DNA from: Patescibacteria group bacterium
GTDB taxonomy: Bacteria; Patescibacteriota; Minisyncoccia; UBA6257; Colwellbacteraceae
Reading direction: 5' to 3'
Assembly (NCBI GenBank): GCA_023380305.1
Contig: JAMCQZ010000008.1
Span: 71,588-120,658, forward strand
Length of the DNA: 49,071 bases
Under the pieces are notes generated by a model. The model ran no database searches and was not told the DNA's origin. It saw only the letters and a program-made list of their open reading frames with translations. Position numbers and translations under genes: made by a program. Positions 13,873-46,961 of the stretch are shown in pieces (position 1 is the first letter of the stretch; the number at the start of each line of letters is the position of its first letter).

Positions 13873-15120
13873 TTATGGGTTCCAATAGACGATCTCGACT
13901 CCGTCCACCCAAATTCGGCCCTCAGCTCCGCCGCCCGTACCATAAATATAGAAGGTAACGCCATGAGTTAGAAGCTCCCAATCGGAAGTTATCGTAAACT
14001 CGCCGGTGATTTCGGTCCATTCGTTGGTCCGCGACAATAACTGATAAGTGGTGCCGCCGCCGCCTGCAAACGTGTTTGTCCCGAGAGAAATCGAATAATG
14101 GTAGAGTCCGAAATATGGATATTTGTCCGCCACGCTCTTTTTGGCGAGGAATCGGACCCGAACCTTGGTGCCCGCTGTCCAACCCTTGGAAACACCCGGC
14201 GTTGACCAACTTTGGTTCACGCCGAGCCAGCGGTGGCAATAACCATAGGCGCAATTCTCGTCGATATATTCAAGACAGCCGCTGTTGTTCAAGCCGCAGC
14301 TCGGATTGGCGTGCGCGTGATAACCGATATTCGGAGAGGAAACGCCGCTGTTGTAACCGGGGCTCCAAGCCGTAGCCGGCCGGTAATCGCCGTTTAAAAT
14401 CCCGTCCCAACCAGGACTGTAGCCGGAAACCAGATTGTCGATCTGTCCGTTCGCGACGATGTTGGCCGAAGTCGCGAGAGTCATGTTTGTGCCGACCTCG
14501 TAAAGGAAGACGTCTGTTCCATTATCCTTGACGGTTACGAGGCTATCTCCGGCCGGCCGGTAAGTGGCCGACTCCATTTCCGTCGATAGTTTATACGACC
14601 CTCCCTCCACAAAACTGTAGTAATAGGAAGCGTTGTTTGCCGGATCAACAGGCAAGACAGCGATAGGAGAACCTCCGGGAATGGAATTGAAGTTCACCGG
14701 TATCCAGCCTGTTCCGTCCACCTTCTTCAGGTTTGCTGTGGAAACGCAATGATAGCTGTAGCCGGAAGGAAGATCCGGGAGGCTGTAGGAAGAGCAATCT
14801 GGATTTGTGTCGGGCAAAGAAAGGTAGATGTTCTGCGGGTTTCCGTAGAGCTCCGACACCTGGGTGGTGTACGAGGTGAAAAGCTGGCTCAACGTCTTCA
14901 TATCGGCTAGCCTTTCCGAGTCCCTGGCTTGTTTCAAGAGCTCGGCCGGCCTCAACACGAGAACGGTGATTCCTCCCATGATTCCGAGGATCCCTATGAC
15001 AAGGAGGAGCTCGACGAGGGTGAAGCCCTGTTCCAGACTGCGATTTTGGGACGGGAAGAAAGAGAACGGCTGGAAAGCGGCCTTTCGGCCGAAACAAAAT
15101 CGCATCTGAGACAAAAGCAT
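13873..15120 (-). CDS. Type IV pilin paralog with a C-terminal beta-sandwich (carbohydrate-binding-like) extension
   Basis: QG|FTLVELLLVIGIL...RP.ELLKQARD. The core shares VDGTGW(I/V)P.NF..GGSPI..LP.DP and YEVGT with the pilin at 9732-10304, then adds about 200 residues. Exact start uncertain. Confidence 0.8.
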   Translation of the reverse strand: MLLSQMRFCFGRKAAFQPFSFFPSQNRSLEQGFTLVELLLVIGILGIMGGITVLVLRPAELLKQARDSERLADMKTLSQLFTSYTTQVSELYGNPQNIYLSLPDTNPDCSSYSLPDLPSGYSYHCVSTANLKKVDGTGWIPVNFNSIPGGSPIAVLPVDPANNASYYYSFVEGGSYKLSTEMESATYRPAGDSLVTVKDNGTDVFLYEVGTNMTLATSANIVANGQIDNLVSGYSPGWDGILNGDYRPATAWSPGYNSGVSSPNIGYHAHANPSCGLNNSGCLEYIDENCAYGYCHRWLGVNQSWSTPGVSKGWTAGTKVRVRFLAKKSVADKYPYFGLYHYSISLGTNTFAGGGGTTYQLLSRTNEWTEITGEFTITSDWELLTHGVTFYIYGTGGGAEGRIWVDGVEIVYWNP

Positions 15121-21212: not shown

Positions 21213-21677
21213 CTATTTCCTCAAGGAAAAGGCGGCGATGCCGAAGGCCACGGCCACGTTCAACGATTCCTTCTTTCCGGCCATGGGGATTTCGATGATT
21301 TTGTCGGATTTTTCTAAAACGGATTTGGGCAAACCCCTCACTTCGTTCCCGACGACCAGAGCGATTTTGTCTTTTCGGGAAAATTTGATCTTGTCAAAAG
21401 GAATCGAACGCCCGTCCTGCTCGAGACTGACCACTTTGTAGCCATCTTTTGAAAGCCGGTTGAGCAACCGGCCGGTTGATTTCGCTTTTTCCCATTCGAG
21501 ATATTTTTCCGCGCCCAAAGCCACCTTGCTCATCTGCGGACGGATCCGGCCGAAGCGATCGACCGGCTCCGGAGTGATGCCGCAGAGATAAATTTTGGAA
21601 AATCCGGCGGCATCGGCCGTCCGGAAAATCGAACCGACGTTATGGAGACTGCGGACGTTGTGCAAAACAACGATCAT
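21213..21677 (-). CDS. TrmH/SpoU family RNA methyltransferase
   Basis: SPOUT motifs LHNVRSLHNVGSIFRTAD, VGNEVRG and IPMAGKKESLNVAVA. Confidence 0.92.
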   Translation of the reverse strand: MIVVLHNVRSLHNVGSIFRTADAAGFSKIYLCGITPEPVDRFGRIRPQMSKVALGAEKYLEWEKAKSTGRLLNRLSKDGYKVVSLEQDGRSIPFDKIKFSRKDKIALVVGNEVRGLPKSVLEKSDKIIEIPMAGKKESLNVAVAFGIAAFSLRK

Positions 21678-21714
21678 GGAATGATTTCAGGATAAACGAA
21701 TCGAATAGATATGA

Positions 21715-22095
21715 TAAGGCCCCTGGCGTCATAGACGACAGGGGCCACTACATGGGTGGAGACATCCTTCCGTGCGGTTCTCGCGCGGACATCTCCGTGT
21801 TGTTGGGAATAAACACCGCGATCTCTCCTCTCCGTCAATCTGCAGATTATGGGGAGGGGCCCGATAGAGCGGACAGCCCTATATGACCGGGCCCCCTCCA
21901 GCTCGCTATTGAGTTGATGCTTTCAACTGGGAAGAAACGTCGATAGGATTCCCCCTTTATCTGGTGTTTGGCGATCTCGTTGCCGGCCCGGTCATCAGAT
22001 AGACGCGGTCATCCTATGACTCTTCAGTATAGGCATCCCCTCCATTGGTGATTTATCCCGCCAAAGACCAAAATGGCGGTAAAACCACCATTGAT
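21715..22095 (-). ncRNA. Putative ~380-nt structured non-coding RNA of unknown family
   Basis: No ORF of 60 aa or more. Upstream TTGACA-N17-TATAGA promoter, many GC-rich helices and a closing hairpin at 21718-21746. Confidence 0.55.
21718..21746 (-). terminator. Terminator-like hairpin closing the putative ncRNA
   Basis: GGCCCCTG...CAGGGGCC stem with an inner CGTC/GACG extension. The U-tract is weak (TTATCAT). Confidence 0.5.
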
Positions 22096-22101
22096 AAGCT
22101 A

Positions 22102-22130
22102 TCTATAGCATACTAAAAGGGCCCTGTCAA
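22102..22130 (-). promoter_or_regulatory. Sigma70-type promoter of the putative ncRNA
   Basis: TTGACA (22125-22130), 17-nt spacer ending in TGC, then TATAGA (22102-22107). Confidence 0.6.
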
Positions 22131-22158
22131 GTATGAGAAAAATACGCTTTTCCCCTGT

Positions 22159-25100
22159 TTATGGCGCGAAATAGTATTTGTGGCCGTCATTCGCGAGCAG
22201 CACACCATTACCGTACAGATCGAATTCATAAAAACCGATAGTGAAAAAATCCGAGGCGGTCAAAGTCTCCATCGTTTTGTCGCTATTCAAGATTCCGCTC
22301 GTTTCCAAAATAATCCGGCCAGATCCCACTCCTGGGACGGGGACAAGCGCACCGGACCGTGGAAGATTGGTCCAGGACAAGCAACGATTGGGTCCGGTCG
22401 TGTTGCTTCCGAAGCTGTCTTCTACGGCTTCTGCTGTTTCAGCTAAAATCAAAATAGGAAAGTCACGGTAAATATTTGCTGGATTTGCCGGGTCATAATC
22501 AATACATGAAAAGTGTTTTGTCTGAATCTGAGCGTAGTCTCCCCCAGAATATCCGCCGCTATAGCTTTCTGGCGGCAGACGATTGAAATAAAAAATCATC
22601 GCCTTGAATCCAGGACCTCCGGTAATAAACGGATAGTTTTGATAATCAAAGTTCAAAATTTTCTGTCCTAGTCCGACATCATTCTTCCAGGATAGATTCG
22701 AAAGCCCGAAAGGAACAGGCACATCCGGCGCGATATAATCCTTTTGAAGTATTTCGGAAGTAATTCCAAAATCGTCAATCGCCTTAATGCGCAAAGAGTA
22801 AGGCGAACTTGGCGAAATATTTTTTCTGTTAACCAACGCGCCCGTCTCCCAAGCTGATCCTCCATCATAGCTGACTTCATAACGCAGTAAAGCATCCAGG
22901 GAGTCGGGATCGGTTGCCGCCGGAGCAGACCAGGTTAGTTCAGATTTGATCGCATCAAAAGAGGTATTTATTTCTCCCGACATTGAGGGTGCCCGATGGC
23001 TCGGAACATCACCGAAAGAATAATGCCCACTGTCGACTGCCAAAAGTTTAAAAATATCTTTGGTCATGTCTCCGGCCGGATAAAACCTATAAAGTCCGTA
23101 GAAAGCGACTGTGATGAAATCTTCCGATGAAAAACTTGCTTCTCCCGACGGCTTTATGACAGAAAAAGATAGATGATTGTCTCCTTCAGAAAGATAAGTG
23201 TTGAAGACCATGGCGCTGTTCGGTATGCCTCCGATAAAAATATTGCATCCCTCGGCCGCGTCGGCCAACACGATTGACGAACGTTCGCTATTCGATACTC
23301 CGCCGCAAATGTCATATCTAGTTTTTAAAATATCTGCTGAATATTCGCCCGATGGAAATTCGCCATCTAAAAACAAGCTCTTCGGCGCATCTCGATTCAG
23401 ATATAGAACCATGATTTTATAATTCGGGGCGGCAGGTTCACCGTACGCTAACGCCAAATTGGCATCTCGTGGCATAAAAGGATAGATATCATAAGAAAAC
23501 TCGAATATCGGTTCGTCTACCTCGTCCCCTTGAATCCCGCGGTGAACAGCCCGGTAAAAACTCGCATTCTTGATATAACTGGGGATATTAATCGATTTAA
23601 AATCGGAGTATTCCGAAGCTAAACCGTCCCGGTCAACCGCTTTTACCTGATACCGATAATCCCGGCCAATCTCATCTATTCGTTTTGAAAAAGTTCCAGA
23701 CATCAATAAGCCGCTATTCGTGGTTTCATCGTTTATGACATCTAAAATGCGGTAATTAACGGCGTCGTTAATTGGTAGGGTAAAATCCACGGAGGCTTTA
23801 TCGAAGTTATAATTTATTTGCCAGTCCGCCGCGGTTAAAGCAGCCGGCGCCTCCCGAGGTTCTAATAGGCTGCTAACGTTCTGCGGTCGCGGCGTCATCC
23901 GTTCGGAAAAGCCCGTAGCCGTATTGGAAGTGCCGCAACCATTCCCTAAGAATTCTCCCTCATCCGAGAAAGCGTCCAAACAAAATCCGTTATTCCAGGC
24001 TTTTCTTTCCAAAGATTTACCTTCCACGATACCCTCATACGCAACCTCATCCACTACACCCCCAATCGCATGGTCGGCATTATAAAGCAAAACAGCATTA
24101 TCCGAATAAGCCAAGCTATTATCCGTTGAATAACGGATATTCGGCTGTAAAGAACCCGCATAATTGGCATGGGTTATCAAAAAAAATCCTTTTGCCGGAA
24201 TCGTGCCGATAAAGGCATCGCTGTCTAAAAGGTTGGTCTCGTTTCCCGAAGAAACCACCTTTTTTCTTAGCTCCCAGCCATCAAGAACTACCGGTTGATC
24301 GGTCGGGTTATATAATTCGACGAACTCGTCTTCCGCCGCCCCACTCTTCCCGACCATTATTTCGCTGATTACCACGTGTCCGGCTTTTGGCGCGACGATT
24401 TCCTCGTTCTGGTTACCTCCCGCTCCAGGCGCGCTATTTTCCGCTTTAGGTGTTCCATTAACGCCGTTCGCGCCGGCCCCGTTATAGGTATGCCAAGACT
24501 CCGCGTTTGTCCTTTCGGCTGTCCGGTATTCCGGCCCGGTAGACCCGCCGATGTTCTGCCAATTGGCGCCGACATCTATCACTTGGTCCACCAGCCCGCA
24601 GTTTTGATTAAATAGCCTTAAAGTTTCATCGGAGTTATTAAGCGCTCCGGAGTATAATTTGTCGGCTAAAATCCCCGAGATAAAATTCTGACTACCTCTT
24701 TCTAGAAGATAAAAACCTCCAGCCGGGAGATTATCCGTATCAGAAAAAATAATTTTGATATCGTTCGTCTTATCTAAAAGCTGCCAACCAGCCAAAGAAA
24801 TCGCTATTTGGGAAACATTTTTGAGCTCGATCCACTCGGAAGAGGAGGACGCGCTATCCCCGGCCCAAGCGACTTCGTTGATTAATATTTGGCGCGTCGG
24901 AATATCATCGATTGCTTGGCCGCACCAAGCAATCTGATTTGGAGCAACCGATGATGAACCTCCACCACCGCCGGATTTAGTTGACTCGCCGATAGAGTTC
25001 TCTTGTTTTGGCGTTCCTTCAACAAAAGAAGACGTGTGCCACCCGAATCCAGAAACGTCCCTTTCCATAGTCTTTCTCGAGGTAGCGGCTCCAGCTGGCC

Positions 25101-27063
25101 AGCCATCGCTAGCCGCGATAACATCTATCACGGCGCAGGAGGCATTGAATAATTTCAGACTTTCCCCGCTATTGGAGAGCGCTCCGGAGTAAATCAGGTC
25201 CGCTGTCACCCCAGGAACGCTCGCGTCATCGGTGCGCTCCAAAAGGTAAAAACCTCCGGGAGAGATCTCAGCTGTTGCCGGAAAAACAATCTTAATACTG
25301 GCGTCTTTAGCCACTATCTGCCAGCCAGCCAGACTGATTTTCTCAGCGCTGATGTTTTTAAGCTCGATCCACTCGCTGTTGGCGCTCGTGGTCGAACCCA
25401 TCCAGGCGATCTCATTGATAATAACTTTTTGGCCGGCGCTGGTAGCCGCATTGAAATCGCAGAATAACGTCTCGGCCGGTTTACTGGTTTTAAGCGACTC
25501 TTTTGAATCTTCTCCTTCCTCTTTGATAATCTTCTCTCTTTGAGGGTCTAAAGATTCCCGTAATTCGAATTTAACTCTATCGGTGATAATTCCCGAAACA
25601 GAATCTTTAACAGAAATGTAATAAACGCCGAGCGGATCATAGGCGGAGGCAGAATATTGATAGTTTAATCCGCCCTGACTATCGGTTATAGCTGAAGCAT
25701 TGATTTTGATCTTATCCGGCCGCTCGATCAAAATATCAACTGGATTATTCTTAACAAAACGCACTCCGATCAAGTGGAGGCTATCCCCTCGCGCGATTTG
25801 CGATTTGTCCAAAGAAATAACCGGCTTTAACAAAGACGCTGGAGGAGTCTGTTCTTTTGGTTGCTTCGGCGCCTCTGATTGCGTAGTAAACTCGTCGATG
25901 GTTTCGAGCTTCGAGGAGCCGCCAAACATCTCAGAAAAGGCGTCCTGGCTGGCAGTAAGAATATTAGCAAGCCAATTGGTCGCGTTGTTTATAAGTTGAC
26001 CGAAAAATGACGTCTTTTTCTCGATAGGGACGGGATTTAATTTATGGGCTTCTTTGGCGGCTTGAGCTTCCTTAAAGAAGAGATCAATCAAGCTCGCGCT
26101 GTATTGAACCGCTTGGGGAGAAAGGCGGGACCAATAGTCCTTTTTAATTAAGTCATTATTTATAGAAGCATCCATCGCATTCATTGTTAAAACATTACCG
26201 GAAAGAGATTTCTTAAACATTAAATAATAAGTTCCTCCATCATCTCGTGCTATACCATACAAGAATCCTCCGCGCGGCTGGAAATAATCTGGTTGTGGTG
26301 TTTTATATCCGCTTTGAATGCCAATAGTGTCTTTGCTGTAAAAGTTATTATTGGAATAGGTAGCTAAGTTATTGAAGGCTATCGAAAGGCTATCTATATT
26401 CAATAAATCCCTGGTTATTAAGCCGGAGCCCAACATCGGATCCGGCTTTCCTAAAACAAACTTATCAGAATAAAGCTCATATGGGCTATCGGCCATATGG
26501 GCGTCGTTTCTCGTATGGTCAGGCACAGACATGTCTTCCATCAAGTGCAAGACATGCCCCAAAGCGAACATTGCTTCCTCGTTTTGGTCGATGGCGTACA
26601 AACCGACGGCTCTTGACCAGGTAAAGTCGGTTTCACTCGAAATAGCGGTGATTTTTTTCTGCTCCACGGCCGTCAGAATCGAAGCAATGGTCGCCGGCAC
26701 TTTATAAACAGCGCTGTTCTGGTTAGCGCTGTCATCAGCCCAATCTTTGGCAGTCTCCCAAGACCCGATAGGCAATAGGGGCGTGATGGCCGCGTCGGTC
26801 GTGATTCCGCGATTGTTCACCGGATCATAAAAATGGTTCATAAAACGAGGGACATCATCTTCCCGCCTTGAACCATCGATCAAAAACGCTTCCAAGTCCG
26901 GAGATATTTTGGATTTCGCGGTTTTTTGATTGAAGAAGTCAACAGCTTCGTCAGTAAGATAAGCATGCGTTTCCGGACCATAAGCCAAAACCGGCTTAGA
27001 AACAATAAAAAATAATCCCAATAAAATTGGGATTAGATATTTCACATGCTTTCTATTTTCCAT
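22159..27063 (-). CDS. Large secreted multidomain protein: Zn-dependent phospholipase C/S1-P1 nuclease-like domain, three lamin-tail domains, Ig/FN3-like modules
   Basis: Signal peptide, then ETHAYLT, HFYDP and LGHVLHLMEDMSVPDH (PLC/P1 Zn ligands). Three lamin-tail-type repeats of the form (I/V)I(N/S)E(I/V)...E(W/F)(I/V)EL.N.....L.GW.L follow. Confidence 0.8.
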   Translation of the reverse strand: MENRKHVKYLIPILLGLFFIVSKPVLAYGPETHAYLTDEAVDFFNQKTAKSKISPDLEAFLIDGSRREDDVPRFMNHFYDPVNNRGITTDAAITPLLPIGSWETAKDWADDSANQNSAVYKVPATIASILTAVEQKKITAISSETDFTWSRAVGLYAIDQNEEAMFALGHVLHLMEDMSVPDHTRNDAHMADSPYELYSDKFVLGKPDPMLGSGLITRDLLNIDSLSIAFNNLATYSNNNFYSKDTIGIQSGYKTPQPDYFQPRGGFLYGIARDDGGTYYLMFKKSLSGNVLTMNAMDASINNDLIKKDYWSRLSPQAVQYSASLIDLFFKEAQAAKEAHKLNPVPIEKKTSFFGQLINNATNWLANILTASQDAFSEMFGGSSKLETIDEFTTQSEAPKQPKEQTPPASLLKPVISLDKSQIARGDSLHLIGVRFVKNNPVDILIERPDKIKINASAITDSQGGLNYQYSASAYDPLGVYYISVKDSVSGIITDRVKFELRESLDPQREKIIKEEGEDSKESLKTSKPAETLFCDFNAATSAGQKVIINEIAWMGSTTSANSEWIELKNISAEKISLAGWQIVAKDASIKIVFPATAEISPGGFYLLERTDDASVPGVTADLIYSGALSNSGESLKLFNASCAVIDVIAASDGWPAGAATSRKTMERDVSGFGWHTSSFVEGTPKQENSIGESTKSGGGGGSSSVAPNQIAWCGQAIDDIPTRQILINEVAWAGDSASSSSEWIELKNVSQIAISLAGWQLLDKTNDIKIIFSDTDNLPAGGFYLLERGSQNFISGILADKLYSGALNNSDETLRLFNQNCGLVDQVIDVGANWQNIGGSTGPEYRTAERTNAESWHTYNGAGANGVNGTPKAENSAPGAGGNQNEEIVAPKAGHVVISEIMVGKSGAAEDEFVELYNPTDQPVVLDGWELRKKVVSSGNETNLLDSDAFIGTIPAKGFFLITHANYAGSLQPNIRYSTDNSLAYSDNAVLLYNADHAIGGVVDEVAYEGIVEGKSLERKAWNNGFCLDAFSDEGEFLGNGCGTSNTATGFSERMTPRPQNVSSLLEPREAPAALTAADWQINYNFDKASVDFTLPINDAVNYRILDVINDETTNSGLLMSGTFSKRIDEIGRDYRYQVKAVDRDGLASEYSDFKSINIPSYIKNASFYRAVHRGIQGDEVDEPIFEFSYDIYPFMPRDANLALAYGEPAAPNYKIMVLYLNRDAPKSLFLDGEFPSGEYSADILKTRYDICGGVSNSERSSIVLADAAEGCNIFIGGIPNSAMVFNTYLSEGDNHLSFSVIKPSGEASFSSEDFITVAFYGLYRFYPAGDMTKDIFKLLAVDSGHYSFGDVPSHRAPSMSGEINTSFDAIKSELTWSAPAATDPDSLDALLRYEVSYDGGSAWETGALVNRKNISPSSPYSLRIKAIDDFGITSEILQKDYIAPDVPVPFGLSNLSWKNDVGLGQKILNFDYQNYPFITGGPGFKAMIFYFNRLPPESYSGGYSGGDYAQIQTKHFSCIDYDPANPANIYRDFPILILAETAEAVEDSFGSNTTGPNRCLSWTNLPRSGALVPVPGVGSGRIILETSGILNSDKTMETLTASDFFTIGFYEFDLYGNGVLLANDGHKYYFAP

Positions 27064-46569: not shown

Positions 46570-46875
46570 TTAGCTTTTCAACACAACTTCGTGGACATAC
46601 TGGCCGCAATCGTTCGAGTGCGGTACGTACGCGCCCGGCTTCAAGGGATATTCCCGAAGCTTGTCCTCCACCTCGTCGGTGAAGCGGCTATTATGGAGAA
46701 TCCACGGCCGCCCCACTTCGTCGTACACCGCGATCAGCCCGTTATTCCGATCGATCGTGTTGGGTTCCCCGCGCTTGACATAGATTTCTTTCGGCGTCAT
46801 CGCCGGATGTTCCGATGTTCCAAGAGCCGAGAAGAAACCGAGGTCGAGCAGAACGTGAGACAGCTTCGTTTTCAT
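46570..46875 (-). CDS. Hypothetical protein (101 aa) with its own promoter and an SD-like site
   Basis: Preceded by TTGACA-N17-TATACT, a hairpin leader and GAGGGGAG 8 nt before the ATG. No recognisable motifs. Confidence 0.6.
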   Translation of the reverse strand: MKTKLSHVLLDLGFFSALGTSEHPAMTPKEIYVKRGEPNTIDRNNGLIAVYDEVGRPWILHNSRFTDEVEDKLREYPLKPGAYVPHSNDCGQYVHEVVLKS

Positions 46876-46932
46876 TATGCAAACTCCCCTCTAAAGGACC
46901 GCGGTCCAAGTCTTAAATTCTTGGACAAAATT

Positions 46933-46961
46933 AGTATAACACATTTAGTTTAATTTGTCAA
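46933..46961 (-). promoter_or_regulatory. Near-consensus sigma70 promoter
   Basis: TTGACA (46956-46961), 17-nt spacer ending in TGT, then TATACT (46933-46938). Confidence 0.75.

Follow-up and report, generated by a model that had tools for sequence, protein, structure and literature searches.

The source genome (G000; 544 kb in 11 contigs, 97% complete, CPR-type) contains, within the 49,071-nt stretch of DNA that was analysed (the window), a 481-bp gap poor in open reading frames (21678-22158) between a gene for a lamin-tail-domain protein and a SpoU/TrmH gene, with both genes encoded on the minus strand. The question raised by this locus is what such a gap encodes. The first-pass annotation had proposed a stand-alone novel non-coding RNA, possibly switching or pseudoknotted. 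The reading favoured here, which we consider to have about an even chance of being correct, is a genus-restricted, cassette-derived putative non-coding transcript that has a buried start site and is kept for its structure. The gap and the promoter that had been annotated in it were both present (TTGACA-N17-TATAGA at 22130-22102), and the flanking genes and promoter parts are as follows.

22159..27063, minus strand: upstream gene for a 1634-aa lamin-tail-domain protein, which marks the slot in all three genomes compared
21213..21677, minus strand: downstream SpoU/TrmH-family gene (trmH), which in the sister species looks leaderless with a -10 of its own
22125..22130, minus strand: sigma-70 -35 hexamer TTGACA, at the same position in G001 and G002
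22102..22110, minus strand: extended -10, TG-n-TATAGA, with the usual last T missing (TG-n-TATCTT and TG-n-TATTTT in the sisters)

The promoter was unlisted by the consensus scan because the last T of the -10 is missing. BLAST of the source-genome element found no homologue in 60 relatives, and synteny with trmH was therefore used. In both same-genus genomes (2/2, G001 and G002, here called the sisters) a protein-less unit was found in the same slot with TTGACA in the same place, and TTGACA-N17-TAnnnT with the TG extension was located where the source-genome promoter lies. The lengths from the promoter to the next start were 456, 441 and 405 nt in the three species, and in all three copies GGUCYUU and CCAAUGG come after a 5' hairpin. 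The corresponding features of the source-genome copy are listed here.

22072..22092, minus strand: 9-bp 5' hairpin, P0, just past the inferred transcription start (~22095)
22063..22069, minus strand: GGTCTTT, a boxA-like instance of the cassette-leader motif G[GT]TCYTT, kept in all three copies
22042..22062, minus strand: ribosome-binding-site position and CCAATGG start context
22046..22090, minus strand: alternative 15-bp hairpin, found in the source genome only, which buries the start region and shows GGUCUUU in a 10-nt loop

Three of the nine P0 pairs were changed on both sides across the three genomes, a result matched in 10/500 shuffles. The Shine-Dalgarno (SD) site reads GGCGGG in the source-genome copy versus AGGAGG in the sisters. 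With a model built from the sisters only, 22040-22130 scored highest (30.2 bits, E = 1.4e-4, filters off) of two matches in the 49-kb window, and a filtered genome-wide search with the same model missed the source-genome locus. Judged from its sequence, the 5' module (promoter, hairpin, GGUCYUU and CCAAUGG) is orthologous in the three genomes. The two sisters are 88% identical in the 5' module, 78% identical in the 3' module and identical at 39/58 (67%) of the fourfold sites of the downstream gene (5' module versus fourfold sites, Fisher's exact test, p = 0.013, computed on 51/58). Among 55 predicted pairs, 13 differ between the sisters by 3 double changes, 8 single changes of the G-U type and 2 breaks, so that 11/13 changed pairs still pair; these covariation counts are drawn from two to three distinct sequences and from helices picked by folding those same sequences.

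The 5' end of the element was compared with the leaders of protein-coding genes in the lineage. About two dozen stand-alone orphan genes of the source genome, picked by eye, combine a strong promoter with an AAGGAGG-type site and a terminator, and often bear a boxA-like motif. These SD-led accessory cassettes are found although no CCUCC is present in the 16S tail of the source genome, indicating that the anti-SD is absent; of five genomes queried for the 16S tail, one gave no 16S match, and CCUCC was also missing from the three tails inspected (G001, G003 and G014). Loss of the anti-SD is described for a subgroup of Parcubacteria by Tsurumaki et al. (2022, PMC9297842). One ordinary cassette of the window served for comparison.

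46570..46961, minus strand: SD-led cassette encoding 101 aa behind a leader of the same layout

The number of cassettes at this comparison slot is 1, 3 and 2 in the three genomes, and the cassettes differ by species. By BLAST the source-genome cassette was unrelated to those of the other genomes, and at the G002 slot several terminator-like hairpins without an ORF are stacked. Of the promoters listed from the two slots, 8/8 have G[GT]TCYTT after them and next the ribosome-binding position, a count that leaves out one further G001 cassette falling outside the promoter pattern. A leader pattern matched 11 times in 8/53 family genomes, and its reversed control once. Nine of these matches lie outside the element, of which eight lead ORFs of 73-171 aa and one falls within a gene and seems to be due to chance; the remaining two are the sister copies of the element, leading 12 and 9 codons. 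The source-genome copy falls outside the pattern because its SD reads GGCGGG. Element and cassettes share the promoter, G[GT]TCYTT, the SD position, the start context and a slot between conserved genes; they differ in the ORF (9-16 codons versus 73-171 aa among the pattern matches) and in the SD, which is altered in the source genome. A CCAATGG-type start context also precedes a 181-aa and a 111-aa ORF elsewhere. Given the shared layout, the element starts with what is, as far as sequence comparison goes, the standard leader of the SD-led accessory cassettes of this lineage.

The leader motif may represent boxA (consensus GYTCTTTAANA), which in E. coli suhB is separated from the SD by 6 nt (bioRxiv 10.1101/091223). 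As in that boxA/Nus leader, the boxA-like motif of the element stands a few bases 5' of the SD, and NusB is encoded in the source genome; the element differs in that GGTCTTT has 3-4 mismatches to the consensus, no Rho was found (search for Rho_N in the source genome) and there is no downstream gene to repress. With at most two mismatches allowed, boxA was found in 4/22 cassette leaders versus 10/379 other genes (p = 0.005, with a consensus that was loosened after the leaders had been seen). No clear boxA was apparent by inspection in the 16S leader of the source genome. Several other units were noted. Three tandem, near-identical SD-led cassettes of 204-205 aa (G000 C11:14939-17100, plus strand) each have a doubled AAGGAGGTGA site. 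Short units with a strong promoter and a hairpin plus U-tract within 30-90 nt, and with no evident ORF, at C4:34404 (minus), C8:64306 (minus) and C10:396 (plus) of the same genome are candidates for small RNAs or attenuators. At another locus (L057, upstream of 2501), a promoter and a GTTCTTT motif 5' of trmH are followed by tRNA-like sequences with unusual arms.

The pairing probabilities predict the two-state fold at the 5' end that had been described as two mutually exclusive hairpins (22072-22092 versus 22046-22090). The predicted probability of P0 was 0.87 at a transcript length of 30-40 nt. That of the alternative 15-bp hairpin (folding z = -4.56) was 0.99 at 60 nt and 0.71-0.77 in long transcripts, and in the full-length transcript the alternative hairpin and P0 are predicted to mix at about 3 to 1. 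The start region had an unpaired probability of 0.24-0.32 versus 0.18-0.50 in 19 cassettes, indicating that its burial is not special. In the sisters a CCUCCU strand located over 200 nt downstream of the SD is predicted to sequester it (p = 0.95-0.99). The body of the source-genome copy has the following parts.

21853..21899, minus strand: large GC hairpin that may correspond to the one conserved in the sisters, and the best-ranked match of model R2
21883..21995, strand unassigned: perfect 11-bp inverted repeat (21883-21893 with 21985-21995), the arms of which are predicted not to pair with each other
21805..21817, minus strand: candidate for long-range pairing with 22047-22059, in a position like that of the strand that sequesters the SD in the sisters
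21758..21796, minus strand: second-last hairpin with two G-U pairs on the minus strand (p = 0.82; z = -3.2 minus, -1.7 plus)
21718..21746, minus strand: closing GC hairpin (z = -5.5), without U-tract

The perfect stems named in the first-pass annotation were found where it had placed them, and its description of dense pairing held for stems of at least 7 bp (11 observed versus 4.05 in shuffles, with 0/300 shuffles reaching 11) but not for stems of at least 6 bp, which were at chance (19 versus 15.8; 67/300 shuffles as high). A stem of 11 bp arises in 6/300 shuffles. The whole unit folds better than shuffled sequence, with z = -3.9 on the minus and -4.3 on the plus strand, but this strength overlaps that of ordinary cassette transcripts, since z for 10 small protein cassettes from the source genome, each folded together with its terminator, ranged from -0.1 to -5.8, with 4/10 at -3.3 or lower. 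Without the end hairpins the 296-nt core had z = -1.8 on the minus and -3.2 on the plus strand and thus had its better fold on the opposite strand. A general hyper-structuring of cassette ORFs found no support (mean z = -0.85 for 47 windows from 19 cassettes versus -0.72 for 75 windows from 253 other ORFs).

The proposed long-range architecture fared less well. The predicted probability of the 11-bp pairing between 21883-21893 and 21985-21995 was 0.0, and the proposed enclosing helix loses its 3' arm to a local hairpin (21796-21787 with 21767-21758, p = 0.82). The 7-bp ATAGGAT/ATCCTAT pairing, which had been placed in the loop of a small hairpin, takes the stem bases of that hairpin and is a nested helix in the minimum free energy structure, and it is therefore an alternative fold and not a loop pseudoknot. 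The SD-like purine runs were not enriched (11 versus 7.8; 183/1000 shuffles). The final GC hairpin exists, but it was absent from the terminator listing. The segment at 21805-21817 is the best duplex partner of the start region, yet an equally good one was obtained in 268/500 shuffles, and its predicted pairing probability is 0.18-0.28. CCUCC occurs once in the source-genome copy, inside a stem, and ACCUCC is absent from it. No significant alignment was obtained between the source-genome body and the sisters (59/300 and 31/300 shuffles), and the covariance model R2 ranked 21853-21899 top in 10 kb, yet with an E of only 0.3. The order of parts is alike, with a large hairpin, a strand able to pair with the start region and then two hairpins. 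G002 has two related SD-bearing hairpins versus one in G001, which suggests a putative internal duplication in the G002 copy.

As to known RNA classes, an Rfam check gave no match at gathering score and two chance-level matches at E up to 10, which agrees with the earlier failure to match the element to RNase P RNA, tmRNA, SRP RNA or 6S RNA. Neither Rfam (RF00023) nor ARAGORN found a tmRNA at the element, and a reading of its ends as G3-U70-like was abandoned, since the element lacks a T-arm and the genuine tmRNA lies on contig C1 (123 bits). RNase P RNA (RF00010-type) gave no match at the element. A candidate of ~490 nt for that RNA was observed at L002:1501-1993 (G000 C4:31396-31888, minus strand; 56 bits, E = 3e-17, below the Rfam cut-off) and is followed by an SD-led orphan cassette of 389 aa. 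6S RNA was rejected as the predicted fold is many-hairpinned and not a single long rod with a central bubble, and 6S RNA (RF00013) was found in 0/3 genomes (G000, G001, G002) at E up to 1; a divergent 6S RNA may be encoded elsewhere. Neither SRP RNA (RF00169) nor the SRP-binding domain of Ffh was found in the same three genomes (97-98% complete). Catalogued ribozymes and riboswitches gave no Rfam match at the element. A 3-kb SD-rich non-coding stretch on contig C10 was recognised by eye as the 23S rRNA gene. Decoy RNAs of the CsrB/RsmZ type have their own promoter and GGA-containing runs, and the element resembles them in these respects and in length. A CsrA sponge was rejected, with a GGA count at chance (11 versus 11.1) and CsrA found in 2/61 genomes and in neither the source genome nor its genus. 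Two csrA-like genes adjoin trmH in one genome of the same order (L042, L044; G051 C1:68495-69044). Stand-alone bacterial small RNA genes have their own sigma-70 promoter and an intrinsic terminator. The element is like them in being intergenic, hairpin-rich, with its own promoter and no conserved ORF, and with a terminator in the two sisters; it differs in its length of ~330-385 nt, its mRNA-type leader start, its occurrence in one genus and the lack of an Rfam match.

Further homologues were searched for in several datasets. BLAST of the G002 copy against 53 family genomes matched only G001 well, and a leader pattern built from the three copies gave 3 matches in 401 genomes of the order, namely these same copies. 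A profile search of 59 metagenome trmH loci gave one match (L045), nearly identical to G002, and among the trmH upstream regions listed from outside the genus none scored with the element profile. A pattern scan of a genome collection gave 6 matches, of which 2 were identical to the sister copies and 4 were without promoter or hairpin; viral contigs gave 0 matches, and BLAST against phages and plasmids none. Three further family matches of model R2 were rejected as antisense to coding genes. The five weak matches of model R1 comprised two ordinary cassette leaders, two sites without an SD-led ORF and one on the opposite strand of the G002 hairpin. In the sets searched, the element thus appears to be restricted to one genus. 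In the literature searched, no description of the element RNA or of the cassette leader was seen; a preprint about clusters of non-coding sequences has one mention of Patescibacteria, which concerns a cluster of the array type (10.64898/2026.10.21.760802). What is new here is a cassette-class member without a protein that occurs genus-wide, with some evidence that its folding is conserved.

According to the favoured reading, an accessory cassette would have lost its protein and would now be kept as a folded non-coding RNA. The sigma-70 polymerase would start near 22095 on the minus strand and produce a transcript of a predicted ~380 nt. P0 would form first and by 60 nt refold into the 15-bp hairpin, which would bury the start region and expose GGUCUUU, and the sisters would bury the start region by the distant CCUCCU strand instead. 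The part of the earlier proposal that survives in this reading is a promoter-driven, essentially non-coding and uncatalogued unit with orthologues in 2/2 sister genomes and pair-preserving changes; the pseudoknot and the long-range switch do not.

The main rival, which we regard as possible but doubtful, is that the element is a decayed cassette relic in which promoter and leader survive and the body consists of leftover leader and terminator hairpins and local inverted duplications with no RNA function. The swapping of cargo in cassette slots, as in the comparison slot with its ORF-less hairpin stack in G002, would be expected if this were so, as would a source-genome body that cannot be aligned with the sisters and a mixed result as to which strand folds best. 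The rewritten start region is moreover close to an inverted copy of the 5' hairpin, and template switching could yield such a copy. A relic would also fit the weakened state of the source-genome copy, with its imperfect -10, altered SD and closing hairpin without U-tract. Against decay, protein-less units of comparable length are present in all three species, conservation between the sister blocks exceeds that at fourfold sites, and the changes between these blocks keep the pairing on the transcribed strand. A cis-acting switch or attenuator of trmH, or a self-cleaving or pseudoknotted RNA, is very unlikely. The element is on the trmH strand with a predicted two-state 5' fold, and read-through into trmH is possible since the closing hairpin has no U-tract; in both sisters, however, a U-tract terminator lies ahead of a separate leaderless trmH promoter, no upstream region of trmH listed from outside the genus scored, and for a ribozyme or switch both an Rfam match and long-range alternatives with a predicted probability above near 0 were missing.

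The gap could also encode a micropeptide cassette or a unit similar to type I toxin-antitoxin systems, with a locked start site, a short peptide and a convergent antisense transcript. Only two frames are found in the gap.

21995..22045, minus strand: 16-codon micro-ORF starting with ATG, not conserved (12 and 9 codons in the sisters)
21674-21838, minus strand: 54-codon frame starting with TTG, the stop of which overlaps the start of trmH (ATGA); it has no match in Pfam and is not conserved in the sisters

The AUG context of the micro-ORF is invariant across the three copies and the SD-AUG spacing of the sisters is normal, which speaks for a micropeptide. Type I toxin mRNAs have an SD sequestered by distant pairing and encode peptides of 20-60 aa, according to the T1TAdb description (PMC8594479). 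The sister copies resemble them in predicted features (150-400 nt, a 5' hairpin, an SD hidden by long-range pairing at p = 0.95-0.99 and a 3' terminator), and they carry an antisense SD and ATG (L013:1841-2281, L014:1099-1503) leading 56 and 38 codons. The difference is that in the element the SD does not lead a peptide of 20-60 aa and an antisense unit is not conserved. The micro-ORF peptides of 16, 12 and 9 aa are below that range and the one of the source genome is unlike the others; the source-genome copy lacks the antisense SD-ATG and its altered SD is buried by a local hairpin; and a hydrophobic frame of the sister copies lacks an SD-led start and extends through the terminator. Given these points we consider a peptide-encoding unit quite unlikely.

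If the favoured non-coding transcript is made, what it would do can be considered in two ways. It could be an untranslated leader mimic, acting as a decoy for a factor that reads cassette leaders, which we consider unlikely; the most likely candidate for such a factor would be NusB-S10, with putative binding at the boxA-like motif. It is highly improbable that the RNA is part of the machinery by which bacteria without an anti-SD read SD sites. For this the ACCUCCU strand of the sisters, placed before a strong hairpin, would have to be released and act in trans on SD-led cassette mRNAs, and the source-genome copy would do the same job by showing the leader motif. Against it, the source copy has no ACCUCC and has its single CCUCC in a stem, and the element was not found beyond the genus in the sets searched, though SD cassettes are family-wide. 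If the RNA is made and kept, it would show a new RNA gene arising from a swappable protein cassette in a streamlined genome, and it would provide a natural ORF-less probe for what reads SD and boxA-like signals without an anti-SD. The weight of this is modest, as it concerns one genus-restricted candidate.

Elsewhere in the window, the gene at 13876-15120 (minus strand) has an N-terminal motif recognised by eye as type IV pilin-like. The 5' region of this gene is repeated at five contig ends and is shared by two paralogues, which suggests that the gene is probably a member of a multi-copy family that breaks the assembly.
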